A DNA stretch of 64,000 bases, taken from NCBI GenBank assembly GCA_965225945.1, contig CBDDBZ010000038.1:192001-256000 (forward strand), read 5' to 3'. The notes beneath the pieces are model-generated. The model worked only from the letters and a program-made list of their open reading frames with translations. It did not search any database and was not told where the DNA came from. This DNA is from Alphaproteobacteria bacterium. GTDB taxonomy: Bacteria; Pseudomonadota; Alphaproteobacteria; GCA-2731375. Both the position numbers and the translations under genes were made by a program. Positions within the stretch are counted from its first letter, which is position 1, and every line of letters starts with the position of its first letter. Positions 2,847 through 40,520 of this stretch are shown piece after piece.

Positions 2847-3512
2847 GTGGAATATTTTGGGTCGAAGGCGACGAGCGGTCTGTGCCAGGCGCTGATTGCG
2901 CTGATGCCGCCGCACAGCGTTTACATCGAGAGCCACCTGGGGGGCGGTGCGCTGATGAAGCGCAAGCCAACGGGCGTGCGCTCGATCGGCATCGACCGCG
3001 ATGCGCAGGCGCTCGAGGCCTTTGCCTGTGACTACCCGGTCGAGTTGGTGCATGGCTGTGCCCATGCCTTTTTGGCCTCGTTCCCGTTTCTGGGCCCGGA
3101 GCTGGTCTACAGCGATCCCCCCTATCTGCACGCGACCCGCCGTTCGGCACGGCGCTATCGCTTCGACTACGAGGAGGTCGACCATGTCGCGCTCCTGGAC
3201 CTGCTCAAGGATCTGCCCTGCCAGGTGATGGTCTCGGGCCATCCCTCGGCGCTCTATGACGAGATGCTGGCGGGCTGGCGCAGTCTGGCGCTGCAGGTGA
3301 CGACCCAGGCCCAGGTGCGGACCGAGGTCGTGTGGTTCAACTTCGCGCCCGACCGGGTGCATTGGGCGAGCTACGCAGGCCGGAACTTCACCGACCGCCA
3401 GCGCATCAAGCGTAAGGCGGCCAACTGGGGCCGGCGTTACAAGGCCTTGCCGGCGGGCGAACGCCTCGCGGTGCTGGCCGCCATGATGGCCGTCGATGCC
3501 GAGGACCCGTGA
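2847..3512 (+). CDS. Dam-like N6-adenine DNA methyltransferase
   Basis: YFGSK, ESHLGGG (motif I variant), DPPY; overlaps transposase start (GTGA). Confidence 0.85.
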   Translation: MEYFGSKATSGLCQALIALMPPHSVYIESHLGGGALMKRKPTGVRSIGIDRDAQALEAFACDYPVELVHGCAHAFLASFPFLGPELVYSDPPYLHATRRSARRYRFDYEEVDHVALLDLLKDLPCQVMVSGHPSALYDEMLAGWRSLALQVTTQAQVRTEVVWFNFAPDRVHWASYAGRNFTDRQRIKRKAANWGRRYKALPAGERLAVLAAMMAVDAEDP

Positions 3513-6931: not shown

Positions 6932-7249
6932 ATGGTCGAAGCCAACGCGGACAGCATCGCCGCCGAGGCGGCCGAGCTGCATGGCCTTGACCTGTCGGCC
7001 TCCCGTCCGGCTCTCGTGGTCGCCGCGCCCGACGACTACTGGGCCGGGTACCTGGGCCACCCGAGGGCCGGACGGTGGCTCCTGGCCCTCCGGAGCTTGA
7101 TTGCGGGCCTATCCGACGCGTTGAGCATGGAGGCGCACCTCGTCGCGTTGCAGGATGCTGACTTCGAGATGGGCCTCGGCGGCCAGCCCGCCCGACTCAC
7201 CGGCGAGTGTCGGCTACTGTCGGTCGACCAGCTGCTGGACAGCCGCTGA
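6932..7249 (+). pseudogene. C-terminal fragment of hypothetical protein coupled to downstream nuclease
   Basis: TGATG overlap with next gene; homologous remnant at 37095-37470. Confidence 0.5.
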
Positions 7250-8280
7250 TGTCCTCGGACCACAGCAGCTATGTTTCGGCTGTCGTCGCCCGGCTGTGGG
7301 ACTACGCGGGGCGTGAGTTCGGCGACCAGCCAGAGCTGCTGGAGTCGGCCGAGCCGTCGCCGACCCGCCCGCCAGTGTTCGCCGCCGGCGCCGCCGAGCA
7401 CAACCTCCTGTATCCGTCGGACGCCCTGGCTGAGGTCCGGCGGGCGATCGTCGACGCCATACCCCGGGCCGAGCGACACCGCCACTTCGCCAGCATGCGT
7501 AGCTCGCAGGCTCTGGCGCAAAGCGTCTTCGGATCGCTCGTGGCGCTCGGCAAGGTGGGCATGCTGGCTGGCCTGACCACGGACGACGGGCTGCCGGCGT
7601 TCTTCGACGACGTGGCGCGGAGTCACGTCCAGATGGAATACGCCGTCGGTCATCTTGGCGAACCGAGGCCTACCCAGTTGGACGTGTGGTTCAAGGGGGA
7701 GCGTCGGGTCGCGGTCGAGTGCAAGTTCACCGAGCCGGAGTTCAATCGGTGCTCCCGACCCACCATGCGGCCGGGCCGTGACAAGAACTACGAGCGCGAC
7801 CACTGCGACGGCACCTATACCCGCCAGCGCGGGCGGCGGGCGCGCTGCTCGCTGACCGAGATCGACGTCCGGTACTGGCAGCACCTGCCGGAGCTGTTCG
7901 ACTGGCCTCCGGACCGGGACATGAGCCCGTGCCCGCTGCGCGGCACCTACCAGCTGGCCCGAAACGTCCTCGCCGCCTGCGTCCGGCCAGACGGGACGGT
8001 CGACGTCGGGGGCGGCCATGCCCTGGTCGTGTACGACGACCGCAACCCGGCCTTCCGGACCGGGGGCGAGGCCGAACAGCAGCGGTCGGCGGCGATCCAT
8101 GGGCTGGCCCATGCCGGTCTGTTGCGCCGCTGCTCCTGGCAGAGGCTCGCAGGGCACATCGTTCGGGCGTCTGGACTGAGTTGGCTTGTCGATGGGCTCG
8201 CAGCCAAATATGGGATCGAGCCATGTCGGGAGTTGGGGGTACAGTCCCCGTCAAGCAGACATGGTCCCCAGGCTCACTGA
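7249..8280 (+). CDS. PD-(D/E)xK putative restriction endonuclease (PGN_0703-like)
   Basis: SSQALAQSVF, PTQLDV, VECKFTEPEF, YQLARN; last codons run through the palindromic site at 8223. Confidence 0.65.
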   Translation: MSSDHSSYVSAVVARLWDYAGREFGDQPELLESAEPSPTRPPVFAAGAAEHNLLYPSDALAEVRRAIVDAIPRAERHRHFASMRSSQALAQSVFGSLVALGKVGMLAGLTTDDGLPAFFDDVARSHVQMEYAVGHLGEPRPTQLDVWFKGERRVAVECKFTEPEFNRCSRPTMRPGRDKNYERDHCDGTYTRQRGRRARCSLTEIDVRYWQHLPELFDWPPDRDMSPCPLRGTYQLARNVLAACVRPDGTVDVGGGHALVVYDDRNPAFRTGGEAEQQRSAAIHGLAHAGLLRRCSWQRLAGHIVRASGLSWLVDGLAAKYGIEPCRELGVQSPSSRHGPQAH

Positions 8281-8286
8281 TAGCCA
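8223..8286 (-). repeat. Palindromic site type A, occupied by recombinase+IS91-like element 1
   Basis: Minus strand tggcta...gacggggactgtacccccaactcccgacat. Confidence 0.75.
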
Positions 8287-8410
8287 TAGAACGAAACCGC
8301 TTTCAGCGGTAGTTCGTGGTGCCGGGCGGTGAGGTCGGTGGCGTAACGGATGGGTCGATCCTGTGTTGAGGTTTGGAGTTCCGAAGCTCACGCAACACGG
8401 GAGCAGACCC

Positions 8411-9316
8411 ATGACCGATAGTGACAAGACCATCAGCCCGCTGCGCCAGCGCATGATCGACGACATGGTGCTTCGCGGCTTCAGTGCCAACACGCAGCGC
8501 GGCTACATCAGTGCGGTGGCCGGCTTTTCCGACTTTCTCGCACGCTCTCCGGATCGGGCGGAGGCGGAGGATCTCAGGCGCTATCAAGTGCATATGCGCA
8601 AAGCAGGCGCATCGGCGACGACGATGAACGCGGCGGTCTCGGCATTGCGGTTCTTCTTCGGCGTCACGCTCGGCCGAGGCGACGCCGAGATCGGCATGAC
8701 GACGGTGGCAATGCCGCGCAAGCTGCCGGTGATCCTGAGCGTCGAGGAAATGGCGCGGCTTCTCGATGCCGCCCCCGGTCCCAAATACAAGGCGGCCTTT
8801 TCGCTGGCCTATGGCGCCGGCCTGCGCGCTTCGGAGGTGGTCCATCTCAAGGTCCCGGACATCGACAGCAACCGCAAGACGCTTCGCATCGAGCAAGGTA
8901 AGGGCCGCCGAGATCGCTACGCCATGCTCTCGGATCGCGCCGTCGAGCAGCTCAGGGTCTGGTGGTTGCTTGGCCGCGCCCGCGGCGTGATGCTGCCCGG
9001 CGGTTGGCTGTTTCCAGGCCAGAACCCGGTCAACCCGTTGACCACCCGCCAGCTCCGTCGCGCCCTCGATGGCGCCAAGGCGGGGGCGGGGATCGAGAAG
9101 CGGATCTCGCTTCACACGCTGCGCCACTGCTTCGCCACCCATCTCCTCGAACAGGGCGTCGACATCCGCGTGATCCAGGTTCTACTGGGGCACAAGAAGC
9201 TGGAGACCACGGCTCACTACACCCAGGTCGCCAGCACCACCTTGCGGCGCGCCAAGAGCCCACTGGACCTGCTCGAGCCGCCGACGCCCAAGACCAAGCG
9301 CAAGCCGCCGAAGTGA
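8411..9316 (+). CDS. Tyrosine recombinase (integrase)
   Basis: GLRASE, HTLRHCFATHLLE, LLGH, TTAHY; ATG at 8411 after RBS. Confidence 0.93.
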   Translation: MTDSDKTISPLRQRMIDDMVLRGFSANTQRGYISAVAGFSDFLARSPDRAEAEDLRRYQVHMRKAGASATTMNAAVSALRFFFGVTLGRGDAEIGMTTVAMPRKLPVILSVEEMARLLDAAPGPKYKAAFSLAYGAGLRASEVVHLKVPDIDSNRKTLRIEQGKGRRDRYAMLSDRAVEQLRVWWLLGRARGVMLPGGWLFPGQNPVNPLTTRQLRRALDGAKAGAGIEKRISLHTLRHCFATHLLEQGVDIRVIQVLLGHKKLETTAHYTQVASTTLRRAKSPLDLLEPPTPKTKRKPPK

Positions 9317-9329
9317 GCCGGCGGCCTCG

Positions 9330-10544
9330 GTGCCGCGTCCCGCGCTCGAGGTCCAGGACATCTTCCGCGACCACGGGCCCGGCTTCCGTCGGGCCCGGGC
9401 CGGTCGTCTGAGCCTCGGCCAACTGAAGGTCATGTCGGCGATCGAGTGTTGCCGCACCGCCGCGCTCGGCGGTCATGTCGCGGCCTGCGAGGACTGCGGG
9501 CAGAACCACATCGCCTACAATTCCTGTCGCAACCGCCATTGTCCCAAATGCCAAGGCCAGGTCGCGCGCGAATGGCTGGCGGCGCGAGAGGCCGAACTGC
9601 TCTCCGTCCCCTACTACCATCTCGTCTTCACCCTGCCAGCGGCGATCGCCGACATCGCCTATCAGAACAAGTCGGTGATCTACGATATCCTGTTCAAGGC
9701 GAGCGCCGAGACCATGCTCACCATCGCCGCCGATCCCAAGCATCTCGGCGCCAAGATCGGCATCACCGCCGTGCTCCACACCTGGGGCTCGGCCATGACC
9801 CACCATCCCCACATCCACATGATCGTGCCGGGTGGCGGAATCTCACCTGACGGTAGCAGTTGGATCTCTTGCCGGCCCGGCTTCTTCCTGCCCGTCCGCG
9901 TGCTCTCGCGCCTCTTCCGCCGCCTCTTCATCGAGAAGCTCCTCGCCGCCCACGAGGCAGGGCGCCTGAAGTTCTTCACCGACCACACCAGCCTCGCCGA
10001 GCCGGCGGCCTTCCGTGTCTTCCTCGCACCGATGCGCAAACAAGAATGGGTCGTCTACGCCAAGCCGCCCTTCGGCGGACCAGAGGCCGTGCTCGCCTAT
10101 CTCTCCCGCTACACCCACCGTGTCGCCATCTCGAACAGCCGCCTGGTCAGCTGCGACAGCCAAGGCGTCATCTTCAAGTACAAGGACTACCGGCGCAAAG
10201 GACGCGAGCGCTACAAGACCTTGCCCCTGGCCGTGCCCGAGTTCATCCGCCGCTTCCTCCTCCATGTCCTGCCCTCGGGCTTTCACCGCATCCGCCATTA
10301 CGGCCTCTTCGCCAACGGCGGTCGCACCCGCAACATCTCCCTTGCCCGCGAACTGCTTGCCATGCCGGCACCGGAGAGTGAGGCCGACGATGCCGCGAGT
10401 GACGATGATACCGAACCGCCGTCCCTCTCAGAGCCCTGCCCGCAGTGCGGCGGCCGTATGATCGTCATCGAGCGCTTCGAGGCCGGCGCCCAACCACGCG
10501 CCCCGCCCCGTGCACGGCCCCTGGCCAGGGCCACGGCAGCATGA
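9330..10544 (+). CDS. IS91-family (Y2/HUH) transposase with Zn-binding N-terminus
   Basis: SCRNRHCPKC, HPHIH, YLSRY. Confidence 0.93.
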   Translation: MPRPALEVQDIFRDHGPGFRRARAGRLSLGQLKVMSAIECCRTAALGGHVAACEDCGQNHIAYNSCRNRHCPKCQGQVAREWLAAREAELLSVPYYHLVFTLPAAIADIAYQNKSVIYDILFKASAETMLTIAADPKHLGAKIGITAVLHTWGSAMTHHPHIHMIVPGGGISPDGSSWISCRPGFFLPVRVLSRLFRRLFIEKLLAAHEAGRLKFFTDHTSLAEPAAFRVFLAPMRKQEWVVYAKPPFGGPEAVLAYLSRYTHRVAISNSRLVSCDSQGVIFKYKDYRRKGRERYKTLPLAVPEFIRRFLLHVLPSGFHRIRHYGLFANGGRTRNISLARELLAMPAPESEADDAASDDDTEPPSLSEPCPQCGGRMIVIERFEAGAQPRAPPRARPLARATAA

Positions 10545-10560
10545 CCGACACCGCTTCGAA

Positions 10561-11251
10561 TAACGCTATTGCCGCCGCTCACCCGCGGCCACGATCCCGC
10601 TCGCCGCAACACCATCGAGCGCGCAGGGAACCACCTGCGAGACCCGCCGGCATCGACCCGAAGTCGCCATCAAACCACCCTGCCGGTGTCGTCGCCAATC
10701 AGATCCGAGCCATCCAGCAGCGCCGGCCACCCGAGAAAGCTGGCCCGCCGCTCGCAAATCCCCATAGACCGAGCGTGCCGCACCGCCGAGCCTAGTCCTG
10801 CCCGCGGTTTCCTCCCTTAAGCGTTGTCGGACACCTGCCGATCCAGTCCGCCGGATGCAACCCCTGCGCCTCGGCAGGTGTCCGACAACGCTTAACATAA
10901 CGCTATTGCCGCCGCTCACCCGCGGCCACGATCCCGCTCGCCGCAACACCATCGAGCGCGCAGGGAACCACCTGCGAGACCCGCCGGCATCGACCCGAAG
11001 TCGCCATCAAACCACCCTGCCGGTGTCGTCGCCAATCAGATCCGAGCCATCCAGCAGCGCCGGCCACCCGAGAAAGCTGGCCCGCCGCTCGCAAATCCCC
11101 ATAGACCGAGCGTGCCGCACCGCCGAGCCTAGTCCTGCCCGCGGTTTCCTCCCTTAAGCGTTGTCCGACACCTGCCGATCCAGTCCGCCGGATGCAACCC
11201 CTGCGCCTCGGCAGGTGTCCGACAACGCTTAACATACGACAACGCTTAACA
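10561..11251 (+). repeat. Tandem duplications of the oriIS-side end (337 bp x2 plus 17 bp)
   Basis: 10561-10897 matches 10898-11234; 11235-11251 repeats the terminal cgacaacgcttaaca. Confidence 0.9.
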
Positions 11252-11330
11252 TAGGAAATTTGGAACTGGCCCATCGTCTGTAGATTGCGAGATAGTTTGT
11301 CGTTAAGGTTTCTCGGGAGGGAGGAGTTCT

Positions 11331-12140
11331 ATGTCCGACGCCAACCTATGGGATCTGAGCGGTAATGCCGCAGAGCAATACGAGAAGATTCCAGCTCGAT
11401 ACATTTTAGGACCATGGGATCCCTGTCTTGTCGAGGCTGCCGAAATTCAGCGCGATGAGAGAGTATTGGACATCGCTTGCGGGACAGGTGTGGTTACGCG
11501 TGCTGCCGCGGAGAGACTTGGTCCAGCAGGTCACGTTACGGGTCTGGATTTGAACGAAGGAATGCTCGAAGTCGCAAGATCATTGGGAGATTCCGGCAGC
11601 AGTAATATCGCCTGGGTACAGAACAGCGCGACTGAAATCGATTTTTCCGACGACAGTTTTGATGTTGTCTTGTGCCAACAAGGTTTACAGTTTTTTGCAG
11701 ATCAACGGAGAGGGCTGCGAGAAACGCATCGTGTTCTGCGAGGTGACGGTCGAACGTACTTTAGCGTTTGGCGCGGGGCAGGTCCCTATAACGATGCGTT
11801 GGGCGGTGCACTCTCGAAGCACATCGATGAGGATACGTCACAGAGATATTTAGCCTCCCGCGAAGTGCCCGATGCCAATGCGCTCCAGTCGATGTTTAAC
11901 GACACAGGCTTTAGGCAAGTGAGCATCACGCCTATTGATATGGAGGTGCGTTTGCCCGAGATCGAAAAATTCATTCTGGCGCACCTCCGAGGAACGCCTG
12001 TTGCTGGCGCGGTCGAAGCACTTTCTGAAGATGCACAATCTGCAATCGTGGAGGCCGCCGTTAGAGACCTTTCAAAATTTGCTGACGGCTCTGATGTGAT
12101 TGTGCCTGATACCATAAATCTTGTGTCGGCAAGAAAGTAA
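11331..12140 (+). CDS. Class I SAM-dependent methyltransferase (UbiE-like)
   Basis: VLDIACGTG, FDVVLCQQGLQFF; RBS ggagg; lower GC than flanks. Confidence 0.9.
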   Translation: MSDANLWDLSGNAAEQYEKIPARYILGPWDPCLVEAAEIQRDERVLDIACGTGVVTRAAAERLGPAGHVTGLDLNEGMLEVARSLGDSGSSNIAWVQNSATEIDFSDDSFDVVLCQQGLQFFADQRRGLRETHRVLRGDGRTYFSVWRGAGPYNDALGGALSKHIDEDTSQRYLASREVPDANALQSMFNDTGFRQVSITPIDMEVRLPEIEKFILAHLRGTPVAGAVEALSEDAQSAIVEAAVRDLSKFADGSDVIVPDTINLVSARK

Positions 12141-12161
12141 AGGCTAGCTCGGAACCAAGCT

Positions 12162-12259
12162 AACTTCCGGGTTGGGTCACGAATCTCTGTCAAGCATCTT
12201 GTATTGGAGCGTCCGGACCTGGGGGTGCTCCCGACGTCGATTCGGTGAAAGCTGACATT
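12162..12259 (+). repeat. Palindromic site type B
   Basis: aacttccgggttgggtca...gtccggacctgggggtg...gacgt...aaagctgacatt, 21 bp after the methyltransferase stop. Confidence 0.65.
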
Positions 12260-12327
12260 TTCCCGCGAGTGTCTGCTGTTGGGGGTAGGGTATCGTCCGA
12301 CCTTGGTGAATGGCTATGGAGGTACGG

Positions 12328-13080
12328 ATGAGGTTAGCAGGAAAGGTCGCGCTGATCAGTGGCTCGGCGCGAGGAATGGGTGCCGAGGGAGCCAGGCTGT
12401 TCGCCCGGGAGGGCGCGCGGGTCGTGCTCGGCGACGTGCGCGACGAGGCGGGAGAGCAGGTCGTGGCGGAGATTCGCGAGCAGGGCGGCGAGGCGACCTA
12501 CGCGCGCCTGGACGTGTCCGACGAGGCGGCATGGCGGGAGGCCGTGGCAGACGCGGAATCGACCTACGGGCAGTTGGACATTCTGGTCAATAATGCCGGC
12601 ATCGTCAGCTACAGCAAAGGCGACGACGACAGCATCGAGGACTTCGACCGGCTTATGGAAGTCAACGCCAGGGGGACCTACGTCGGCATGCGCGCCGCCA
12701 TACCGGCCATGCGTCGCGCGGGCGGCGGCTCCATCGTCAACATCTCATCGATTTCGGGTCTGGTCGGTCAGAGGCACGTCCACGCGGGATACAACGCCTC
12801 GAAGGGCGCGGTGTGCATCATGACCAAATCGATGGCGGTGCAGCACGCCCAGGATGCCATTCGCGTCAACTCGGTGCATCCGGGGCCCATCCAGACCGAC
12901 ATGACCAAGGAAGCTTGGATGGACCCGGAGCGTCGCCGACGGACCGAGCAGAGCACCCCGCTCGGCCGCTACGGGCTACCGCTCGACGTAGCTTACGCCG
13001 TGCTCTTCCTGGCATCGGACGAAGCGGCGTACATCACGGGCGCCGAGCTGGTCGTGGATGGCGGCTACACGGCGCAGTAG
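12328..13080 (+). CDS. Short-chain dehydrogenase/reductase
   Basis: SGSARGMG, NNAG, YNASK. Confidence 0.93.
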   Translation: MRLAGKVALISGSARGMGAEGARLFAREGARVVLGDVRDEAGEQVVAEIREQGGEATYARLDVSDEAAWREAVADAESTYGQLDILVNNAGIVSYSKGDDDSIEDFDRLMEVNARGTYVGMRAAIPAMRRAGGGSIVNISSISGLVGQRHVHAGYNASKGAVCIMTKSMAVQHAQDAIRVNSVHPGPIQTDMTKEAWMDPERRRRTEQSTPLGRYGLPLDVAYAVLFLASDEAAYITGAELVVDGGYTAQ

Positions 13081-13289
13081 CACCAAAGCCGATAAAACGG
13101 TGCGCCCAATGTAACGCCCAAATCCGCGCCCGCTTCGCACACGCGCGAGGACGATCTCAACCGCTATGTCGAGGGTTTCCACCACGGCTGGGGTTGGATT
13201 CCTCGTTAGGACTATATCGTGAGTTAGCTCGGCCTTCGCCATCCACAAACAAATTTGCTTTGGCCTTATTCTGGCATCAGCAGGGAATA

Positions 13290-13849
13290 CAGCCAGCACC
13301 TCGCATCGCCGTCATTGGAACCCGGGAGCCCAGCGACGATGGCTTTCGCCGGGCGCGAAGGATTACCGAGCTACTGGTCGAGAAGGGCTATACCTTCGTT
13401 TCCGGTCTCGCCGCCGGGATCGATGGCGCCGCGCACCGGACCGCGATCGAAGCCGGCGGCCGTACGATTGCCGTCATCGGCAGGTCGATCTAACTGGCCT
13501 ATCCGATCGAGGACGCCGCGCTTCAGGATCGGATCGCCGACGACCATCTGCTGATCCCACAGGTTCCGGCGCTTCGGTATGCCGCTCAGGATCCCGGTCG
13601 AAACCGCTACTTCTTCCCCGAGCGCAACGCGACAATGAGCGCCTTGACGAAGGCCAGCATCATCGTCGAGGCGGGGGCGACCTCCGGTACCCTCGCGCAG
13701 GCCCGAGCCGACTTCCATCAAGGTCGGAAGCTCTTCATCCTGAACCCGTGCTTCGAAACATCCGGTCTGACGTGGCCGGCCAGGCTGGAACACGAACATG
13801 GCGCCATTCAGGTGCGTGAGCCTGATGACATCTGGTCCGCTCTCGCCTG
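13290..13849 (+). pseudogene. DprA/Smf-like fragment with internal stop
   Basis: VSGLAAGIDG, FFPERNATMS, IIVEAG; TAA at 13491-13493; N-terminus missing. Confidence 0.8.
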
Positions 13850-14007
13850 AAACGTCGAGAGAAACGCGACTGGGCGATGGCGGCATGGAAGGCCAGGCTG
13901 TACGATTTTGGGTGATCGCTGCCATCATGGAGCTGGAGGCGAGTAGGTCCGATGGAACAGTTCATTGAGCAGCTAATTCCGCCGGTACCGCCCCGGCCAA
14001 TGCCGGC

Positions 14008-14080
14008 ATATCGGCTATCGGGGTATAGTCGCCGTCGGGCCGAAATGCCGGTCACGCCCGGCATTAGCCACAGGAAAATT
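14008..14080 (-). repeat. Palindromic site type A, empty
   Basis: Closely matches 17715-17778; abuts the Rieske gene stop codon. Confidence 0.8.
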
Positions 14081-15933
14081 CACGACTCTCCCCTACCCGA
14101 CGCCTCGGCCGCCTCCATCGCCGCCGGCACGTCCTCGTGGATCCTGCCACCGCGGTGAAGGCGTCGGGCAATATCGGCGGTCTGGTACTGAGACCGTTCT
14201 GTGGGCGAATGGGCGGCAAGGAACCGCGCAACGCCGATGAGGATGTGTCCGCCTTCTTCCGCGCCCTGCCAGCTTTGGTACTGGCGCACCCCAGCCTCCA
14301 GGTTCTGATAAGCGTGAAAGCCCGCGTCCTCGCGCAACAGTGCCCGGGCGAGGGTCACTATCAGCGGTGCGCTCGGGTGCTTCTGGCCGAGAAACCGGGT
14401 AACGATTCGTGCCGCCGCGTCGACCTGGCTTTGCCGGTCCATCACCTCGAGCAACAGGCGGCACAGCCCGTCCGCGTCATCCGGCAAATCGTCGAGCGAA
14501 TCTCCCTGCGCACCGGGCAGTAGGGCGGGCGGGACGTTGAGGTAGCGGTTGACATAAAGCGCCATGGCGCCGTGGAAGACGCCGCGCAAGATATCGGGGT
14601 CGGGGTCCGGGGCGCCGGCGCCCGCCTGCTCCTCACCTTGCGCCCGCGCAAGCAGTGCATCGAGGGCGCTGCAGTAGGTGAAGCTGTGATGGGCCGAGTT
14701 CCAATCAGAATGTTCGTTGGCGGTGCCGAAGCGGGCGAGACGGAGCGCAGCCGCGTAGGCGAGCGTCCGGCCGAGGTCCGTTGCCCGGGCGCCGCTAAGA
14801 ACGGCTTCCTTGATGGCCCCCACGATCGCTTCGGCGTCGTCGGCGAGCATGTCCTCGGCGAGTGTCCGGTGGTGCCGCCATGTGCCCGCTTTGGCCCGGC
14901 CCTCGCCGATCAAGTCCGGAAGCTCGGCAAAAGCATTCTCCAGAATTGGCACCAGGTCCACGGGATGGCGCCAGGTGTTCGATTCTTCCCGCCCTTTTGA
15001 CGAAACCAACCCGCGCACCACGCTCGGCAAGATGTCGGTGGCATGCTCCCAGCCGATGACGTCGAGGCATTCGAGGGCCTTGTTGATGAAATCAAGCGCA
15101 TGGCCGCCATCGGCGTAATACCTGTCGGTGACAGCCGAAAGCAGCATATTCGCGAGCTGGCTCTGGCTGGCCCCGGATGCGATCGCCGTGATCAGGGTGC
15201 GTTCGGCGCCGTCGCGGTGGCGGACGAGGGTCCAGCGCCTGAGCCAGCGCTTCAGGGTCGCAAGATTTGGCGCGTGATCTCCCAGCTTGTCCCGCCCCCG
15301 GCGCGGCGCTTCGCCGGCGCAATCGGCGGCCACCCGGCGCACGCCCTTGTAAAGGGCGAGGGTGGTCTCGTCCTCCGGCAGGGCGGGCATGAGTTTGGCG
15401 AGTGCCGTGAGCACGGTGAGGCCGGTTCCCCAGTCGTCCCGGTTGCGGGCCCCGAACAGGGCCGCCTCGCGGACCACGCTCCGCCAGTCGGTGTCCGATT
15501 CTTGCAAGGCCAGCACCGACTTGGCGATGACGAGGCCGAGGTTGTGGGCCATGCCGTGGGTGAGGCGGCGGTGCCAATGGGCGGCCCCGTCGGCGTGACG
15601 GCATTCGCGCCCCACCCAGACCTCGCCGTCGCGCAACTCAACGGGCGCGCTCGGCACGTCGTCCGCCCAGAGGTCGAATGTGGCGCCACTCTTGATGTCG
15701 AAGCGGGCATGGTGCCAGTGGCAAGTGAGGATGCCGTCCTCGACGGACCCGCGATGGAGTGGAAATCCGAGGTGGGGACAACGGTTGTCCAGCACATGCA
15801 CCTCGCCCTCGTCATAAATGACCAGGAGCGGGCAGCGCCCGCCGCCGACCACCATCTTGCCCTTGGCTTTGAGTTCGTCCAGGGTGCAGGCGCGTATGAA
15901 AGCGTCGCGGATTACGTTACCGGTTGCGTCCAT
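14080..15933 (-). CDS. Rieske 2Fe-2S domain protein with long helical C-terminus
   Basis: CPHLG...CHWH; likely start MDATG. Confidence 0.85.
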   Translation of the reverse strand: MDATGNVIRDAFIRACTLDELKAKGKMVVGGGRCPLLVIYDEGEVHVLDNRCPHLGFPLHRGSVEDGILTCHWHHARFDIKSGATFDLWADDVPSAPVELRDGEVWVGRECRHADGAAHWHRRLTHGMAHNLGLVIAKSVLALQESDTDWRSVVREAALFGARNRDDWGTGLTVLTALAKLMPALPEDETTLALYKGVRRVAADCAGEAPRRGRDKLGDHAPNLATLKRWLRRWTLVRHRDGAERTLITAIASGASQSQLANMLLSAVTDRYYADGGHALDFINKALECLDVIGWEHATDILPSVVRGLVSSKGREESNTWRHPVDLVPILENAFAELPDLIGEGRAKAGTWRHHRTLAEDMLADDAEAIVGAIKEAVLSGARATDLGRTLAYAAALRLARFGTANEHSDWNSAHHSFTYCSALDALLARAQGEEQAGAGAPDPDPDILRGVFHGAMALYVNRYLNVPPALLPGAQGDSLDDLPDDADGLCRLLLEVMDRQSQVDAAARIVTRFLGQKHPSAPLIVTLARALLREDAGFHAYQNLEAGVRQYQSWQGAEEGGHILIGVARFLAAHSPTERSQYQTADIARRLHRGGRIHEDVPAAMEAAEASGRGES

Positions 15934-16042
15934 ATCCCCTTGTCCCCAGGCCGGCAAGCCGAGATCCCCCAAATGGCGCCCCCAGTTGCCGACGATGGTA
16001 GCACGATGGGCGTTTGCACCACGATTCCAGTCGCATGATCTA

Positions 16043-17221
16043 GTGTCCCGATTCCGAAGTTCGCATGATTTTCGCCTGCTGTTCAGCGATTTCGATTGTT
16101 CGGAGGCAGAACCGCTGGATGGCGGCGAGGATGTCATCGGCGGATTTGGTCCATTTGAAGGGTTTGGGGTTCTGGTTTGTCGTGTCGATGTAGTCGAGGA
16201 TGGTGCGCTCCAGCTCCTTGGTGGAGCGATGGACGCCGCGCCTGATCTGTTTGTCGGTCAGCAGCCCGAACCAGCGCTCGACCTGGTTGAGCCAGGAGGC
16301 GCTGGTGGGTGTGAAATGGGCCTGCCAGCGCGGCCGTTTGGCGAACCAGTCGCGGATCGCCTTGGTCTTGTGGGTCCCGTAGTTGTCCATGACGATGTGG
16401 ATGTCGAGATCACCAGGGACGTTCGCCTCGACGAGGTCGAGGAATTTGCGGAACTCTCGGGCCCGATGGCGCGGGAAACATTTGCCGATGATCTCTCCCG
16501 TGGCGATGTCGAGGGCCGCGAAGAGAGAGGTCGTGCCGTGGCGCTTGTAGTCGTGGCTGCGCCGCTCCGCCTGCCCGGGGCGCATCGGCAAGAGGGGCTG
16601 GGAACGGTCCAAGGCCTGGATCTGGCTCTTTTCGTCGACACAGAGAACCAGGGCACGATCCGGCGGCGCCAAATACAGACCGACGATGTCGCGGACCTTC
16701 TCCACGAAGAAGGGATCGCTCGACAGCTTGAAGGTCTCCGAGCGATGCGGCTGCAAGCCGAAGGCCCGCCAAATGCGATGAATGGTCGAGGGCGCGTGGC
16801 CGCTCGCCCGCGCCATCGAGCGAAGGCTCCAATGGGTCGCGTCCGGCGGCGTCTCTTCCAGCGTCAGCCGGACCGCTTCCGCGATGGCGTCATCGCCGAT
16901 TTGGCGCGGCGCGCCGGGGCGGGGTTCGTCGTACAGACCGTCGAGGCCCTCCGCCGCATAGCGGCGACGCCACTTGCCCACGGTGTCCGCGCTCGCCTCG
17001 AGACGAACGGCGATCTCCTTGTTCTCCAACCCTTCCGCCGCCGCCAAGACGATCCGAGCCCGCCGCGCAAGCCCCTGCGACGTCTTGCGACGACGAGACA
17101 GCGCCTCCAATTCGGCGCGCTCGTCATCGCTCAAAGAGATCGTCACCGCCACTCTCGCCATCAATCGCGCCTCCTGAAAACAAATAGAGACATAATCATA
17201 TCAATTTATCGATCAGGACAC
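16043..17221 (-). mobile_element. IS630 family element (transposase 16040-17164)
   Basis: TA duplication in CTAG; [17 protein letters not shown]; second copy at 60941-62119. Confidence 0.95.
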
Positions 17222-17714
17222 TAGCAGGTGCGGAGGCATTCGGCTCGGCCGTCTCTCACGCCATGGAGGTCGGGCGCCTTCTGATGGAGGCGAAGGAGAT
17301 AGTACCGCATGGCAGTCGTGGTGACGTCGAGTGCCCCCACCTCCGGGGCGTGAAGCTCGACGGCGGGGGCCGCGCGCCTGGGCGTGGTTCTCGCCACCCA
17401 TTTCGTCGCGCCCGTCAAGTGTAGCCCCCGGTTGCACCCCACGGAAGTCGCGTCGAGCAATCTGCATGGCGGGTGTGCCCCGCCACCGGTTCTGACCCCG
17501 ACGGCGGGGGCCGCGCGGCGCGGGGCGCGTAGCGTCACCCCTTTTCGTCGCGCATCGCCAGTGTAGGCGGTTCACGGCTTCCCGAAAACGTCATCACCGC
17601 CCGTTTCGGGACACGAGGTTTCAGGAAACAGTTTCGGGAGACGAGAAGCGGCGGAAACGTGTCGCGACGCCAGCCCCGCGACGGGGCGGCCGGCGCCGCC
17701 CTCGACCCGTACCT

Positions 17715-17778
17715 ATGTCGGCTATCGGGGGTAGACTCCCCGTCGGGTCGGGGTGCCGGTCATGCCCGGTGCTAGCCA
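17715..17778 (-). repeat. Palindromic site type A, occupied by element 2
   Basis: Minus strand tggcta...gacggggagtctacccccgatagccgacat. Confidence 0.8.
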
Positions 17779-18003
17779 ACGATCGGGATAGGGGGGCGCC
17801 TCGCGGCGCCGCCCCTCCCACACCACCTGGCATACGGGTCACGTACCTCGGCGGTTCGACCGGGTTAAGCATGGGCAGAGACATGGAGTCTGGGGAGACC
17901 GAATGAGTCGAAAGCGTGGTTTCGCAGGGCCATTTGGACCGCCGGGTGTCCGGACATGCGCCAGAACCCGGTCGGTGAACCGGCTGCGACCGCTGCATTG
18001 AAC

Positions 18004-18758
18004 CTTGCCTATCCGGTTATCACCCACACCCACTATATGTAGTGTGCACCCATTTTCCTGAGTAAAGCTCGGTGCAGGTCGAAGCGGAGATATCTCCGGC
18101 GATGCCGAGCAGGGACTCGGACGGCATTGTAGCGCCTTTTAGGCGACACTTTAGCGTGGTGGAAATCCTAATCATTGAGTCGGATTTGGCAAAACGCCAC
18201 GTTGCATAAAGGACCGTCACTTCATTGAAATTTATCTGAAATCGGAGGTGAACGACACCGATGGAATATTCCAGGAAATCAGAGCTTCATTGAATTGTAG
18301 GATTCGAGTGCCGGATTATTCACAAATAGCTCTGTGAACTGGTTTTCAAGTTCGCTCAATACGTCATATGAAGTAAACGGATTGAGGATCACGTTCTTGC
18401 GTGTCGCTTCGTCTTCGCTGCGACTCAAAACGCGCAGGAGACTAACAGGCGCGGACGGGTTCTTCGCAACGATTCGTGCCAGCGCGTCGCTTTCTTCGAC
18501 TAGTGCCGTCAATCGCTCAGACGATGTCGTTTCATCAGCAGCTTCCCGTCTGGCCGTGGGTTTCTTCGTTTTTCCCTTGGTCGCCACCGTTCCGTCCCCC
18601 GATGTTAAGTACGTGACGTGAATTAAACTCCGGTTCGGTTTTCAGAACAATCAAGAATTAGCCGGATCGCCTCCTCAATGCGCCTGCGCCGGCCCTTGCC
18701 TGCAGTCCAAGGAGACACACTACATATAGTGGGTGTGGGTGATAACCGGATAGGCAAG
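18004..18758. mobile_element. Non-autonomous insertion cassette with IS1595 (ISSod11-type) ends
   Basis: Perfect 43-bp IRs starting cttgcctatc; 8-bp TSD CATTGAAC; no transposase. Confidence 0.88.
18279..18587 (-). CDS. Small helical-repeat (LRV-like) passenger protein
   Basis: VAKNPSAPVSLL / VILNPFTSYDVL / VNNPAL repeats; RBS upstream. Confidence 0.55.
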   Translation of the reverse strand: MATKGKTKKPTARREAADETTSSERLTALVEESDALARIVAKNPSAPVSLLRVLSRSEDEATRKNVILNPFTSYDVLSELENQFTELFVNNPALESYNSMKL

Positions 18759-20605
18759 CATTGAACTTTGGGACGCCACGACGGCGCAGTTCCTTGAAGC
18801 GGTTTTGCCCGTTCCGCCATTGCCGCCAAAGATACATTCGTAGTCTTCGGCGGATCCAGGCTTCCAGATGGGTGAGCACGCGGGGGGTCTGGCAGAAACC
18901 GAAATAGCCGCGCCAACCGATCAGGTATGGTGCCAGTTCTTCGATCACCTGCTCGAGGCTGAGCCCCCGTGTCCGGCGGGTGAGGTCCCGGATCCGCGTC
19001 TTGAACTTCTTGAGCGCTTGTGGCGCGATGCGCCGCTCGCTCCCATCGTTCGAGATGCTGAAGCCCAGGAACTTGCGCGCCTCCGGTCGCGCCACCGCAC
19101 TCTTGGCCTCGTTGACCTTCAGCCGCAGCTTCTTGGTCAGGAACCGGCTCACCGAGGCCATGACCCGCTGGCCGGCGCGGTGACTGCGAACATAGATGTT
19201 GCAGTCATCGGCATAACGGCAGAAGCGGTGGCCGCGGCGTTCCAGCTCCTTGTCGAGGTCGTCGAGCACGAGATTGCTGAGGAGGGGCGAAAGCGGACCG
19301 CCTTGCGGGGTCCCCTCGTCCACTGGGCTGACCAAGCCGTTTTCCATCACCCCGGCCTTCAAGAAGGCCCGGATAAGCTTGAGCACCCGCTTATCGGACA
19401 GCCGCGCGGCGACCCGCGCCATCAAGCTGTCGTGGTTCACCCGGTCGAAAAATTTTTCGAGATCGAGATCGACCACGATGCCATAGCCCTCGGCTACATG
19501 ACGTTGCGCTTGGGCGACGGCCTGATGGGCGGAGCGCCCCGGACGGAAGCCGTAGCTGTGCTCGAAAAACGTCGAATCCCAACGCGGTTGAAGGACCTGC
19601 AACAGGGCTTGCTGGATCAGTCTGTCGACGACGCAAGGCACGCCGAGCTTTCTGACCCCGCCGTCCGGCTTGGGTATTTCGACCCGTTTGACCGGCTGCG
19701 GCTGGTAACTTCCTTCGAGCAGTTGAGACCGGATGCTTGGCCAGTGTTCACGCAGGTGGTCCCTGGCGTCGTTGATGGTCATACCATCGACGCCGGGACC
19801 ACCCTTGTTCCTGCGAACCTGTTTCCAGGCCCTTTCGAGGTTCTCTCGCTCGCACACCACCTCCATCAGTTGCTCTGCCGTGGCCGGGTTTTCGGGCTCT
19901 GGCGCCGCCATGGGTGGTTCGGCCCCGTGGTGACCGCCGACCGGGGCTTCACCCCGGTCCCTCGGCTCCAGGGCCAGTGAGTACTGGACGTTCCGCCGCT
20001 CTCCACTCATGAGTTGCCAGTCCTACTTGCCTCTCCCGATCGTTCGGGCCTTCGACCATCGTTGCCGGCTCGGCCTATCCGTTGCTCCGCCTTTCGGCCT
20101 GGAGTGCCTCAATAGCCTTGCCGACGCCATGACCTACTATGCCCTCTGCTGACTCCTGCGCCGCGATCAGGTTGCCTTACGGCTTCCTCAGTTCCGAGAT
20201 CGGAACACGACGCAGGCCTCCCCAGGTAAGTTCGGTCGCCTTCCCCGCAGCCCTGCCGGATCTACAGCCTCGGCCCTTGATGGATATGGACTTCGCGGTT
20301 CGTCGCCCGCTCGTCCGGCCAGGGATGCCTCGTATCCGGTTTCTGTTCGTCAGGTCGCGGTTTTGCTCCACACTGCCTTCGGAAGCCACCTCGCGATGAC
20401 CCCCTTGTGCTTCGCTAATCCTTCACCTCCATCAGGTTGGATGGGAGACTTTCACTCCTAAGCTACCGAACATGCTGGGCACACAACGAAACCGCTTTCA
20501 GCGGTAGTTTGTGGTGCCGGGCGGTGAGGTCGGTGGCGTAACGGATGGGTCGATCCTGTGTTGAGGTTTGGAGTTCCGAAGCTCACGCAACACGGGAGCA
20601 GACCC

Positions 20606-21511
20606 ATGACCGATAGTGACAAGACCATCAGCCCGCTGCGCCAGCGCATGATCGACGACATGGTGCTTCGCGGCTTCAGTGCCAACACGCAGCGCGGCTA
20701 CATCAGTGCGGTGGCCGGCTTTTCCGACTTTCTCGCACGCTCTCCGGATCGGGCGGAGGCGGAGGATCTCAGGCGCTATCAAGTGCATATGCGCAAAGCA
20801 GGCGCATCGGCGACGACGATGAACGCGGCGGTCTCGGCATTGCGGTTCTTCTTCGGCGTCACGCTCGGCCGAGGCGACGCCGAGATCGGCATGACGACGG
20901 TGGCAATGCCGCGCAAGCTGCCGGTGATCCTGAGCGTCGAGGAAATGGCGCGGCTTCTCGATGCCGCCCCCGGTCCCAAATACAAGGCGGCCTTTTCGCT
21001 GGCCTATGGCGCCGGCCTGCGCGCTTCGGAGGTGGTCCATCTCAAGGTCCCGGACATCGACAGCAACCGCAAGACGCTTCGCATCGAGCAAGGTAAGGGC
21101 CGCCGAGATCGCTACGCCATGCTCTCGGATCGCGCCGTCGAGCAGCTCAGGGTCTGGTGGTTGCTTGGCCGCGCCCGCGGCGTGATGCTGCCCGGCGGTT
21201 GGCTGTTTCCAGGCCAGAACCCGGTCAACCCGTTGACCACCCGCCAGCTCCGTCGCGCCCTCGATGGCGCCAAGGCGGGGGCGGGGATCGAGAAGCGGAT
21301 CTCGCTTCACACGCTGCGCCACTGCTTCGCCACCCATCTCCTCGAACAGGGCGTCGACATCCGCGTGATCCAGGTTCTACTGGGGCACAAGAAGCTGGAG
21401 ACCACGGCTCACTACACCCAGGTCGCCAGCACCACCTTGCGGCGCGCCAAGAGCCCACTGGACCTGCTCGAGCCGCCGACGCCCAAGACCAAGCGCAAGC
21501 CGCCGAAGTGA
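20606..21511 (+). CDS. Tyrosine recombinase
   Basis: Same protein as 8411-9316. Confidence 0.93.
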   Translation: MTDSDKTISPLRQRMIDDMVLRGFSANTQRGYISAVAGFSDFLARSPDRAEAEDLRRYQVHMRKAGASATTMNAAVSALRFFFGVTLGRGDAEIGMTTVAMPRKLPVILSVEEMARLLDAAPGPKYKAAFSLAYGAGLRASEVVHLKVPDIDSNRKTLRIEQGKGRRDRYAMLSDRAVEQLRVWWLLGRARGVMLPGGWLFPGQNPVNPLTTRQLRRALDGAKAGAGIEKRISLHTLRHCFATHLLEQGVDIRVIQVLLGHKKLETTAHYTQVASTTLRRAKSPLDLLEPPTPKTKRKPPK

Positions 21512-21524
21512 GCCGGCGGCCTCG

Positions 21525-23777
21525 GTGCCGCGTCCCGCGCTCGAGGTCCAGGACATCTTCCGCGACCACGGGCCCGGCTTCCGTCGGGCCCGGGCCGGTC
21601 GTCTGAGCCTCGGCCAACTGAAGGTCATGTCGGCGATCGAGTGTTGCCGCACCGCCGCGCTCGGCGGTCATGTCGCGGCCTGCGAGGACTGCGGGCAGAA
21701 CCACATCGCCTACAATTCCTGTCGCAACCGCCATTGTCCCAAATGCCAAGGCCAGGTCGCGCGCGAATGGCTGGCGGCGCGAGAGGCCGAACTGCTCTCC
21801 GTCCCCTACTACCATCTCGTCTTCACCCTGCCAGCGGCGATCGCCGACATCGCCTATCAGAACAAGTCGGTGATCTACGATATCCTGTTCAAGGCGAGCG
21901 CCGAGACCATGCTCACCATCGCCGCCGATCCCAAGCATCTCGGCGCCAAGATCGGCATCACCGCCGTGCTCCACACCTGGGGCTCGGCCATGACCCACCA
22001 TCCCCACATCCACATGATCGTGCCGGGTGGCGGAATCTCACCTGACGGTAGCAGTTGGATCTCTTGCCGGCCCGGCTTCTTCCTGCCCGTCCGCGTGCTC
22101 TCGCGCCTCTTCCGCCGCCTCTTCATCGAGAAGCTCCTCGCCGCCCACGAGGCAGGGCGCCTGAAGTTCTTCACCGACCACACCAGCCTCGCCGAGCCGG
22201 CGGCCTTCCGTGTCTTCCTCGCACCGATGCGCAAACAAGAACCTGATTACGCATCAACCTCAGCCAATTTGAGGAGCCGATATGGCATGGGGGGCGTGCG
22301 CAGGGCGTCGCGTCCGAGGGCCTCGATCATGTCGGCGAGCCGGTAGCGGCGGTTATATCGGTATTGGAACGCCGCCAGGTAGCGCGGAACGTGTTTGGGC
22401 CGGATCGCATGGTAGGTGCCACGCAGGGTGTTCTTGAGATTGCCGAGGGTGGTGTTGACCCATTTGAAGGCCGGCACGGCGACGGCCCCTGGTCCGGAGC
22501 CGGTGGGTATCGGATGGTGGGCGCAGCCTTGCGCGGTGACCGCGGTGAAGCAGTTGAGCCCGTCGCTGAAGACGCTCGTCCCGGGGCTCAGGTCGCGCTT
22601 GGCCATCTTGGCGATTTCGGCCTTGCGGAAGCCCTTGACGCGGCGCAGCTTGATGCGCACGGGCTGGCCCTCCGCCGTGGTCTGGACGGCGGCGACGAAC
22701 GGCGTCTTGCCCGGCGCGCCCCGGCCGCGCTTGGCCCCGGAACGGCGGCCGCCGAGGTAGGCGTCGTCCATCTCCACCCGCCCGGTGAGCGGCAATTTGG
22801 CGTCGCGCTCGAGCATGGATTGCATCAGTTTCTGCTTGATCTTCCAGGCCGTGGTCTGGGTGACGCCGAGCCGGCGGCCGAGTTCGATGGAGGAGATCCC
22901 CTTCTTCGATTGGGTCATGTGATAGATCGCCGAAAACCACAGGGTCAGCGCCAGCTTGGTCGCGTGGAAGAGCGTGCCGGCGGTCAGCGAGACTTGATGA
23001 CGGCAGGCGGCGCATTGGTAGAGTTTTCGCCCGGCGATCTCGCAATGGCGCGTGGCACCGCATCGGGGGCAGGAGAAGCCCTCCGGCCAACGCCAGCGGA
23101 ACAGGGCCTCGCGGCACTGCTCCTCGGTGCCGTACATTTCACGGAAACGCGGCTCGCTGAGCCCCTTCTGGAACTGAACCTTGTTGCGTGGCATTGTGAA
23201 CCTCCAGAAAAACCACCAAATATTCACGATTTGTACCACATCAATCCGGCTGAGTAAGGTGCGTAATCAGGAACAAGAATGGGTCGTCTACGCCAAGCCG
23301 CCCTTCGGCGGACCAGAGGCCGTGCTCGCCTATCTCTCCCGCTACACCCACCGTGTCGCCATCTCGAACAGCCGCCTGGTCAGCTGCGACAGCCAAGGCG
23401 TCATCTTCAAGTACAAGGACTACCGGCGCAAAGGACGCGAGCGCTACAAGACCTTGCCCCTGGCCGTGCCCGAGTTCATCCGCCGCTTCCTCCTCCATGT
23501 CCTGCCCTCGGGCTTTCACCGCATCCGCCATTACGGCCTCTTCGCCAACGGCGGTCGCACCCGCAACATCTCCCTTGCCCGCGAACTGCTTGCCATGCCG
23601 GCACCGGAGAGTGAGGCCGACGATGCCGCGAGTGACGATGATACCGAACCGCCGTCCCTCTCAGAGCCCTGCCCGCAGTGCGGCGGCCGTATGATCGTCA
23701 TCGAGCGCTTCGAGGCCGGCGCCCAACCACGCGCCCCGCCCCGTGCACGGCCCCTGGCCAGGGCCACGGCAGCATGA
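21525..23777 (+). pseudogene. IS91-family transposase split by IS1595
   Basis: MRKQE|EWVVY junction across the insertion. Confidence 0.92.
22242..23271 (-). mobile_element. IS1595 family element (transposase 22247-23239)
   Basis: CCTGATT/AATCAGG ends, TSD AACAAGAA, zinc ribbon, VEMDDAY. Confidence 0.95.
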
Positions 23778-24174
23778 CCGACACCGCTTCGAATAACGCT
23801 ATTGCCGCCGCTCACCCGCGGCCACGATCCCGCTCGCCGCAACACCATCGAGCGCGCAGGGAACCACCTGCGAGACCCGCCGGCATCGACCCGAAGTCGC
23901 CATCAAACCACCCTGCCGGTGTCGTCGCCAATCAGATCCGAGCCATCCAGCAGCGCCGGCCACCCGAGAAAGCTGGCCCGCCGCTCGCAAATCCCCATAG
24001 ACCGAGCGTGCCGCACCGCCGAGCCTAGTCCTGCCCGCGGTTTCCTCCCTTGAGCGTTGTCCGACACCTGCCGATCCAGTCCGCCGGATGCAACCCCTGC
24101 GCCTCGGCAGGTGTCCGACAACGCTTAACACAACCGGACTGTGAGAGTTCTCTAATGCATTCCTGTGGGATCGA

Positions 24175-40051: not shown

Positions 40052-40314
40052 GTCGTAGTGATATTATGTATTATTCGGCTTTCCTAGTAAAGTAGAATTA
40101 TTGGAATCTTAAGGCTTACCGTCATCGCTTCGAAGATCTCGCGCGCGAAAGGATCATCGCGCGGGCCGCGCGGCCGAGTGTCTGTACGACACCGCGGTCG
40201 GTGGGCTCCTGCCGGAAAGAACGAGGTGCCAAATGACGGCGCAAATGCCACTCTCTGGGGACGGACCGGAGCCAGTGGAGCCGGCTCCAGAGCATTGTTT
40301 CATTATTGGGGAAT

Positions 40315-40520
40315 GCCATGAGGAGAGGAGCAGAAGGGAAAGGATATAGGAAAACAATAGGACGGTGCCGGCTCCACCGGCTCCAGGTGTGGAACGGCGT
40401 GCAAAGTTGACCCCTGTGCCATGAGGAGAGGAGCAGAAGGGAAAGGATATAGGAAAACAATAGGACGGTGCCGGCTCCACCGGCTCCAGGTGTGGAACGG
40501 CGTGCAAAGTTGACCCCTGT
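40315..40520 (+). repeat. 103-bp exact tandem duplication overlapping the IS21 left end
   Basis: 40315-40417 = 40418-40520. Confidence 0.9.

Follow-up and report, generated by a model that had tools for sequence, protein, structure and literature searches.

Three copies of a recombinase-carrying IS91-family transposon

The DNA analysed here, referred to as the window, is a stretch of 64,000 nt from an Alphaproteobacteria bacterium (positions 192,001–256,000 of contig CBDDBZ010000038.1 in the 39-contig assembly GCA_965225945.1). Self-comparison of the window, together with Pfam and NCBIfam scans, identified three copies of one 2.6-kb IS91-family transposon, each with a gene for a tyrosine recombinase followed by a gene for an IS91-family Y2 HUH transposase (Table 1). 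The assembly is labelled G000 and its contigs carry C-numbers; G001 is an unrelated genome, G003 a congeneric genome, and L-numbers denote loci elsewhere. Terminal inverted repeats are absent from the element and subterminal hairpins stand in their place, as in the IS91 family. The right-end hairpin has a stem of ~25 bp and a folding z of −9.9, and the left-end hairpin of family 1 has a z of −2.0. Copies 1 and 2 are 99.9% identical where they can be aligned. A preliminary description of this DNA grouped all three elements together, and they do share the two genes and the base at which they are inserted in a repeat termed type A, but copy 3 belongs to a second family. Its identity to family 1 is 80–85% in the alignable stretches of the transposase gene (~9348–10319), and its left end differs in sequence while still being predicted to form a hairpin (−4.5 kcal/mol, z −1.25). 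The same description closed the region of copies 1 and 2 at 24140; the right end of copy 2 is at 24130. Contigs assembled from four public runs all contain the left junction of copy 1, with the element ~30-fold deeper than its flank; these contigs break at the repeat, and neither an empty site nor a circle joint is visible in them.

The transposase matches Y2_Tnp (5.5e-68) and Zn_Tnp_IS91 in Pfam and the NCBIfam model for IS91 family transposases (NF033538, 427.6 bits against a cut-off of 125), and both the HUH motif, HPHIH, and the YxxxY motif, YLSRY, are readable in its translation. The recombinase matches Phage_integrase (1e-40), with a readable catalytic R..HxxR..H..Y and an N-terminal SAM-like domain. 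Its nearest NCBIfam models are XerA, IntI and XerC/D, all with scores under their cut-offs, and by family score it is not IntI (TIGR02249, 175 bits in two stretches against a cut-off of 265). Integron integrases carry out single-strand exchange on folded hairpin sites. Judged by these sequence features, the recombinase of the element is an integron-integrase-like tyrosine recombinase. The available part of a preprint (bioRxiv 10.1101/542381) places recombinases of IS91 elements in an integron-like subgroup and states that they lack the IntI-specific helical insertion.

Table 1 Coordinates of the transposon copies, their parts, later insertions and type A repeats in the window.
Feature	Position	Strand	Details
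Copy 1, family 1, inserted DNA	8287–11251	+	Intact; closes with tandem repeats of its 3′ end
Copy 1, variable dinucleotide of left junction	8287–8288	+	TA
Copy 1, body	8289–10897	+	Left end G-AAC, hairpin 8291–8317; right-end hairpin 10817–10895; tip ...GCTTAACA
Copy 1, recombinase gene	8411–9316	+	
Copy 1, IS91 transposase gene	9330–10544	+	
Copy 1, internal relic	10540–10575	+	Looks like a junction of right end, TA and left end; the tandem-amplified 3′ unit begins here (by reading the sequence)
Copy 1, tandem 3′ units	10898–11234	+	TA + 335-nt unit
Copy 1, tandem remainder	11235–11251	+	TA + last 15 nt of right end; flank resumes at 11252 with TA
Copy 2, family 1	17779–24130	+	AC + G, then split by group II intron and IS1595-family element; right tip at 24130
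Group II intron in left end of copy 2	17782–20484	−	Between NNG and AAC; reverse transcriptase/maturase open reading frame 18658–20010; Rfam D1–D4 matches
756-nt element inside intron	18003–18758		Perfect 43-nt terminal inverted repeats
IS1595-family element in transposase gene of copy 2	22242–23271	−	8-bp duplication AACAAGAA
Copy 3, family 2	53946–56580	−	Left junction TA, left end GCAC; tip ...CCTGCACA, last base 53946
Type A repeat, occupied by copy 1	8220–8286	+	Ends with TAGCCA, 8281–8286
Type A repeat, empty	14005–14070	+	TAGCCA at 14065–14070
Type A repeat, occupied by copy 2	17711–17778	+	
Type A repeat, occupied by copy 3	56581–56648	−	

Insertion directly 3′ of CA

Each upstream end had been described as reading TAGCCA-NN-G(A/C)AC, where NN is a variable dinucleotide. 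The motif is literally present at copy 1 (TAGCCA-TA-GAAC, 8281–8292, forward strand) and at copy 3 (TAGCCA-TA-GCAC, 56586–56575, reverse strand), and these two matches in the window compare with an expectation of 0.09, with two or more matches occurring in none of 100 shuffles. At copy 2, TAGCCA-AC-G occupies 17773–17781 and AAC... resumes only at 20485, so that the motif is complete only with the intron removed, because a group II intron fills 17782–20484. Genome-wide, all 22 family-1 left junctions read CA, a spacer, G and AACGAAACC, the spacer being 2 nt long in 21 and 1 nt long in the remaining one, and all five family-2 left junctions read CA-NN-GCAC. At the other end, 20 family-1 copies finish exactly with ...GCTTAACA, and ...CCTGCACA forms the right tip of all four full family-2 copies.

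The left flanks of 25 independent sites, taken from both families, have A at position −1 and C at −2 in 25/25, a pyrimidine (Y) at −3 in 21/25, G at −4 in 22/25, and a purine (R) at −5 in 25/25. Among 18 right flanks no position is conserved; position +3 is A in 8/18, against 17% A genome-wide. The element inserts in a single orientation, without target duplication, directly 3′ of CA in R-G-Y-C-A, and the proposal of site- and orientation-specific integration at a shared CA holds at all 25 independent sites. The right tip, ...TTAACA or ...TGCACA, ends like this target, and the target mimics the element's own right tip, with its hairpin and ...TTAACA. The left terminus is GAAC, GCAC or GGAC in the families examined, corresponding to GTTC, GTGC or GTCC on the bottom strand, and the part of PMC13181058 consulted lists these three among the cleavage or target tetranucleotides of IS91, IS801 and IS1294. 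On the bottom strand, an IS91-type cleavage tetranucleotide of the GTTC/CTCG kind is present at the left (terIS) terminus, but two variable bases part it from the flank.

Type A repeats and other targets

A nhmmer profile search found 44 type A repeats genome-wide, of which 40 include the 3′ part. According to our own classification of the search output, these 40 complete repeats carry a family-1 element directly after TAGCCA (4/40), a family-1 element behind the same group II intron (2/40), NNG and an intron fragment only (1/40, a remnant, checked), a family-2 element (3/40), or an IS110-family element a few bases upstream (5/40, from Pfam), and 25/40 are empty. Nine of the 40 are occupied at the identical base and in the identical orientation, and one further repeat holds the remnant. 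The type A site itself had been taken as the target. Collecting the copies genome-wide and reconstructing their empty sites upheld specificity for CA and refuted specificity for type A, since 14 of the 22 family-1 copies lie outside complete type A repeats and have in common only R-G-Y-C-A. Two of these 14 are in type-A-like 3′ halves, five or six in repeats of a second family, type B, one in the maturase open reading frame of a group II intron and one in a member of a gene family, with the rest in other sequences. R-G-Y-C-A is located at the 3′ foot of type A repeats, which appear REP (repetitive extragenic palindromic)-like, in type B repeats, and occasionally elsewhere.

With 44 dispersed copies, the type A repeat may be a short imperfect palindrome of the REP or BIME (bacterial interspersed mosaic element) kind. 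Its folds are weak (z −0.8 to −2.8), and for that reason hairpins in the target were set aside as a recognition feature. Rfam gave no match for either the type A or the type B repeats. The IS110-family elements a few bases upstream of CA are at C19:8767, C29:109717, C33:199138, C34:8822 and C37:331382, and from these five insertions the type A repeat therefore attracts a second kind of site-specific insertion sequence (IS). Upstream of copy 1, an open reading frame with a restriction-endonuclease-like domain (REase-ARP; 7207–8280) has its stop codon within the type A repeat, just before TAGCCA.

Exact extent of the inserted DNA

Joining the flanks of copy 1 (8286|11252) gives tagcca|taggaaattt, which agrees in eight of the ten bases after the junction with the empty site tagcca|caggaaaatt at 14065–14080. 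For copy 2 the joined flanks read tagcca|caaccgga and an empty paralogue on C35 reads tagcca|caaacgga. The flank joins quoted for copies 1 and 2 in the preliminary description, and the empty site, were correct on re-reading the sequence. For a copy on C24, the left flank up to ...GCCA and the right flank together are 100% identical over 197 nt to two empty paralogues of the intron that carries it. The DNA inserted there is therefore TA + G...AACA, in which TA is foreign to the target, and nothing is duplicated; this exact empty site (197/197 nt) confirms the earlier statement that no target duplication is made. Four further reconstructions, at two type B sites, copy 2 and one family-2 copy, align gap-free to their closest empty paralogues, and in all four the dinucleotide that follows the right tip agrees with the closest paralogue, whereas NN does not. 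A sixth copy is inserted in a gene family, where its right-flank dinucleotide is the commonest among the paralogues (~8/12, by reading). An orthologous empty site was sought for copy 2 as well, and 30 other genomes yielded nothing that matched its right flank close to the junction. The inserted DNA consists of two variable bases, G-N-A-C with the left-end hairpin, the two genes, the right-end hairpin, and CA.

Diversity and origin of the variable dinucleotide

At the 25 independent G000 sites, from both families, NN is TA in seven, AA in six, AC in five and AG in three, with AT, TG, CA and a lone A once each, giving eight spacer variants in all. NN varies among family-1 copies that are 99.9% identical and otherwise differ by a handful of single-nucleotide polymorphisms (SNPs), and it equals the copy's own right-flank dinucleotide in 1/18. 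Genome G001 contains at least 41 copies of a related family with a recombinase that is 63% identical. Within it, a clade of at least 13 copies is marked by one shared 1372-nt IS at the same site and in the same orientation in the transposase gene, and the 12 readable left junctions of this clade carry six NN types. NN is not simply inherited, because the marked clade has six types in 12 copies. The shared IS lies between ...IRH and YGLF... (L066, L069, L071, L076, L079 and L109–L119), and the element seems to have multiplied in this interrupted form, presumably with help supplied in trans.

Tandem arrays provide a second view of the same bases. The ~340-nt 3′ unit that is repeated at the end of copy 1 is tandemly amplified at three G000 loci. 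In four arrays of such 3′ units the internal junction dinucleotide is the same as the dinucleotide after the last right end: TA in copy 1, TC on C39, TT on C31, and CC in the single copy of G003. The dinucleotide natively found at this internal position is TA for G000 and GC for G003, which makes three of the four arrays informative. The relic within copy 1, from its resemblance to a right end-TA-left end junction, suggests that the last ~340 nt of the element arose from a mini-element inserted in tandem.

In G001, the NN pool (n=25: GA 5, TG 4, AA 3, AG 3, AT 3, CA 3, TA 3, AC 1) is nearly matched by the right-flank pool (n=25: GA 6, TG 5, AA 3, AG 3, AT 2, TA 2, CA 1, AC 1, TC 1, TT 1). Individual copies there have NN equal to their own flank in 4/21, about as independent draws from the pool would give, and one head-to-tail tandem reads ...AT-X-AG-Y-AT-flank, as expected were X a local copy of Y. 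NN is probably the two bases that followed the right end of the donor, brought along in a copy, circular or concatemeric, that is joined as right end-xy-left end. The earlier suggestion that the variable 2 nt resemble a coupling sequence is borne out in that they are absent from the exact empty site, differ among 99.9%-identical copies, and equal the flank at the four tandem arrays. Tracing donors with a phylogeny of SNPs was abandoned, with too few SNPs in G000 and a mosaic pattern in G001.

Two proposed cut registers and a possible division of labour

If NN is donor DNA, two registers can be proposed. For copy-out, each CA would have the cut 2 nt to its right, which at the left end falls just outside G-N-A-C (a GTNC-type tetranucleotide on the bottom strand), and the copied unit would run from G-N-A-C to 2 nt past the right tip. 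For insertion, strand exchange would take place exactly at CA, with the target CA joined to the dinucleotide and the CA of the right tip joined to the next base of the target. Since these registers are 2 nt apart, two enzymes are suggested, with the transposase responsible for copy-out and the recombinase for paste-in. The HUH transposase would produce a copy of the element together with two donor-flank bases; the recombinase would paste the copy in by a single-strand exchange needing only the shared dinucleotide, and replication would complete the process. We prefer this assignment of copy-out and paste-in, which derives from the two cut registers, and give it slightly less than an even chance. 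Its more specific form, in which the HUH-made circle with donor bases is pasted in the manner of an integron into hairpin-type repeats via a shared CA, GT or CG, is possible and is put forward more tentatively. A role of the recombinase in integration is plausible.

The dinucleotide common to right tip and target co-varies by family, being CA, GT or CG, and six further families from other genomes are built on the same plan. CA is shared in families 1 and 2 of G000, and at both tip and target in the metagenome-assembled genome families L068/L077 and L014/L019/L020; in L016/L029 and L055/L065 CA was seen in the left flank only. GT is shared in G001 and CG in L050/L054/L059. This co-variation of tip and target, together with the difference in registers, is the best argument for a second activity at the shared dinucleotide.

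Several points weigh against the two-enzyme reading and the carry-over on which it builds. No circle junction was seen in the material searched, which consisted of assembled contigs only, and at the predicted junction no recombinase core site, with inverted arms around an overlap, was found by reading. An offset of 2–4 nt is impossible for the classical two-strand reaction of tyrosine recombinases, and a single-strand exchange must therefore be assumed. Beside the proposed copy-out nick, 2 nt beyond the right tip, no tetranucleotide is conserved; canonical IS91 differs in this, its tetranucleotide adjoining oriIS being described as essential in the part of PMC13181058 consulted. Conservation confined to the 5′ side of the top-strand cut, with mimicry of the target at the far end, would suit a lone HUH enzyme as well, and the hairpins of the targets are statistically unconvincing (z −0.8 to −2.8). 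Three G000 copies with a common 6-nt deletion all have AA as NN, for which simple inheritance fits as well as a common donor, and the G000 NN pool (TA 7, AA 6, AC 5 and so on) is unlike the right-flank pool; the AA trio and the unmatched pools are compatible with few active donors and lend no support to carry-over. The sequence GCTTAAC at the family-1 right tip fits the integron core site RYYYAAC; it is absent in family 2 and G001 and its polarity is opposite to that of attC, and we took the match as chance.

The HUH transposase could instead do everything on the top strand, cutting 3′ of R-G-Y-C-A in the left flank as well as in the right tip and inserting 3′ of the same motif. The left would then be an oriIS-like end that needs its target, the right a terIS-like hairpin with CA, and the recombinase an accessory that resolves tandems or cointegrates, or regulates, with NN shifting by occasional mis-cleavage. 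Such a scheme accounts for conservation restricted to the 5′ side of the cut, the absence of a target duplication and the single long subterminal hairpin at the right end (z −9.9), and the head-to-tail tandems exist as possible substrates for a resolvase. The consulted part of PMC13181058 also likens the IS91 terIS tetranucleotide to the target tetranucleotide, as the far end mimics the target here, and reports that IS91 TnpA alone suffices for IS91 transposition in trans. We nevertheless consider the scheme unlikely: it predicts stable inheritance of NN, where the marked G001 clade has six types in 12 copies; the tandem arrays break exactly 2 nt past CA rather than at CA; the conserved G-N-A-C terminus stays unexplained; and relative to ori and ter the genes would have to be inverted in comparison with IS91 as depicted in that part of the source. 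The opposite choice of strand gives the canonical bottom-strand IS91 geometry, with the right end inserting first, 3′ of a loose tetranucleotide, so that NN would be target and the right-flank bases donor. The tandem arrays fit its register, the bottom strand has GTNC at the left terminus, and the A at +3 in 8/18 right flanks (genome 17% A) echoes the T at position 2 of IS91 targets given in the same part of PMC13181058. It needs TA in the C24 empty site, yet that site has GA, and GA is also what follows the right tip; the four closest paralogues and the one gene family point the same way. Because the right-flank dinucleotides belong to the target and NN does not, we treat the canonical geometry as excluded, leaving it a very small residual chance.

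Carriage of flank bases is also what a recombinase acting alone would produce, if it excised and integrated the element with coupling sequences in the style of Tn916 or CTnDOT while the transposase only replicated the circle. In its favour, the two genes are conserved as a pair: of 494 candidate stretches, 404 encode a relative of the recombinase, and those close plasmid relatives that were examined have the recombinase upstream of the transposase. The dinucleotide of the flank also travels along, and right tip and target share a dinucleotide. With a spacer of 2 nt at one end in place of 5–7 nt at both, no products of a second strand exchange in 27 junctions, a left-end cut that coincides with an IS91-type tetranucleotide, and ~20 copies at 99.9% identity, which fit copy-and-paste better than excision, we give this possibility little credence. 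In a further proposal nothing is carried: every insertion would leave a 2-nt gap whose filling, untemplated or error-prone, creates a fresh NN. Junction and flank dinucleotides are the same at four tandem arrays, including TC, TT and CC, and the NN and flank pools of G001 match closely, both of which speak against filling. The composition of NN speaks for it: among dinucleotide spacers, A occurs in NN at 23/24 G000 and 21/25 G001 sites, the rest being TG, and CC, GG, TT and the like are never seen as NN. On balance filling is improbable, by a shade less so than the recombinase acting alone.

If the two-enzyme reading is true, the element would combine copy-out of the rolling-circle type with paste-in of the integron type, and this would explain its homing to REP-like repeats. 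Recombinase-carrying IS91 relatives are widespread, and we found no account of the role of their recombinase. The 5-nt target that mimics the right tip, the hypervariable dinucleotide that seems to record the donor site, and the two cut registers are handles for testing it, and NN could act as a natural barcode of donor-to-daughter relations among copies.

Relation to known elements

The gene pair is shared with other IS91 members that have an upstream tyrosine recombinase, such as those with the ISfinder names ISAzo26, ISMno23, ISSod25, ISShvi3 and ISWz1. The two plasmid-borne transposases most similar to the present one, at 73% and 58% identity, have the recombinase upstream as well, RefSeq annotates the pair in Bradyrhizobium and Sinorhizobium plasmids, and in one scan the 404 of 494 candidate stretches that encode a recombinase relative came from many phyla. 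In contrast, enterobacterial IS91-family transposases are ~25% identical to the present one, and in the one record examined (H4) the transposase stands alone. The pair therefore marks a deep and known IS91 subgroup. A literature search found no description of the ends, target, spacer or recombinase role of these elements; ISfinder, TnPedia and supplements, which may describe them, lay outside that search. The Bradyrhizobium plasmid was considered as a further multi-copy family and dropped, having one near-identical copy only.

Like IS91, IS801 and IS1294, the element encodes a Y2 HUH transposase with a zinc-binding N-terminus, has subterminal hairpins without terminal inverted repeats, makes no target duplication, inserts in one orientation beside a short sequence that its far end mimics, and has a GTNC-type tetranucleotide at its left (terIS-side) terminus. 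It differs from them in the extra recombinase gene, in a target of 5 nt with upstream context instead of a tetranucleotide, in the 2-nt variable spacer at the left, and in a conserved target located on the left flank and not abutting the right (oriIS) end, as compared with the account in the part of PMC13181058 consulted. IS200/IS605 elements and Helitrons likewise insert 3′ of a short motif without duplication and have a hairpin near the 3′ end and tandem ends, but their transposases are of other families, and they have neither a recombinase nor a variable spacer.

Integrons resemble the present system in that the integron integrase is among the nearest named families of the recombinase, in that the targets and the right end are hairpin-like, and in that an IS110-family element and a group II intron are drawn to these repeats or hairpins, a property of attC sites according to the part of PMC9229058 consulted. 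The score of the recombinase is under the family cut-off, however, the IntI-specific insertion is stated to be absent (bioRxiv 10.1101/542381, in the part available), and there are no R and L boxes of the attC type. With Tn916 and CTnDOT the element shares the travel of donor flank bases, which end at one junction of the new site. In strand-biased circularising elements (SEs), 6 bp are carried over and a circular copy of one strand is made without emptying the donor, as described in the part of PMC9345347 consulted. Compared with Tn916, CTnDOT and SEs, the spacer here is 2 nt and not 5–7 nt, is found at one end only, and is accompanied by an HUH transposase. The right junction keeps the target's own bases, and the coupling of 5–7 nt at both ends that staggered recombinase cuts give in Tn916 is absent; a classical two-strand reaction of that kind is incompatible with a spacer of 2 nt confined to one end.

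Other insertions and repeats

The group II intron is found at the same left-end spot, between NNG and the hairpin, in two G000 copies (copy 2 and C9:30137–32073), and an intron also occupies the equivalent left-end spot in the Bradyrhizobium plasmid copy (L123:~1490). This looks like an intron homing to the left-end hairpin of the element. The 756-nt element inside the intron has the same repeat at 48232–48275 and related sequence at 48233–48792. In G001, the first four bases of some left ends are replaced by a shared foreign sequence ending ...CCCAT-AGAAT(C/T), at loci L064, L066, L073, L079, L086, L088, L089, L091, L096, L097, L102, L104, L109 and L113; it is probably another element that targets the left end.

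Within the transposase gene, all seven interrupted copies examined were hit at the 8-bp site AACAAGAA (window 22234–23279, and copies on C26, C34, C37, C38 and C39). Five of the inserts are IS1595-family variants, present in both orientations, and two are a different IS. The interrupted copies were considered as one proliferating lineage, which would argue for mobility without the transposase, and this was rejected, as the inserts differ in variant and orientation and include two of a different IS; with such differing inserts, the site is therefore an insertion hotspot. Elsewhere in the window there are perfect inverted repeats of 2287 nt (2698–4984 and 49696–51982) and 645 nt (49051–49695 and 58109–58753), presumably further IS copies, and a perfect 103-nt tandem duplication at 40314–40519.

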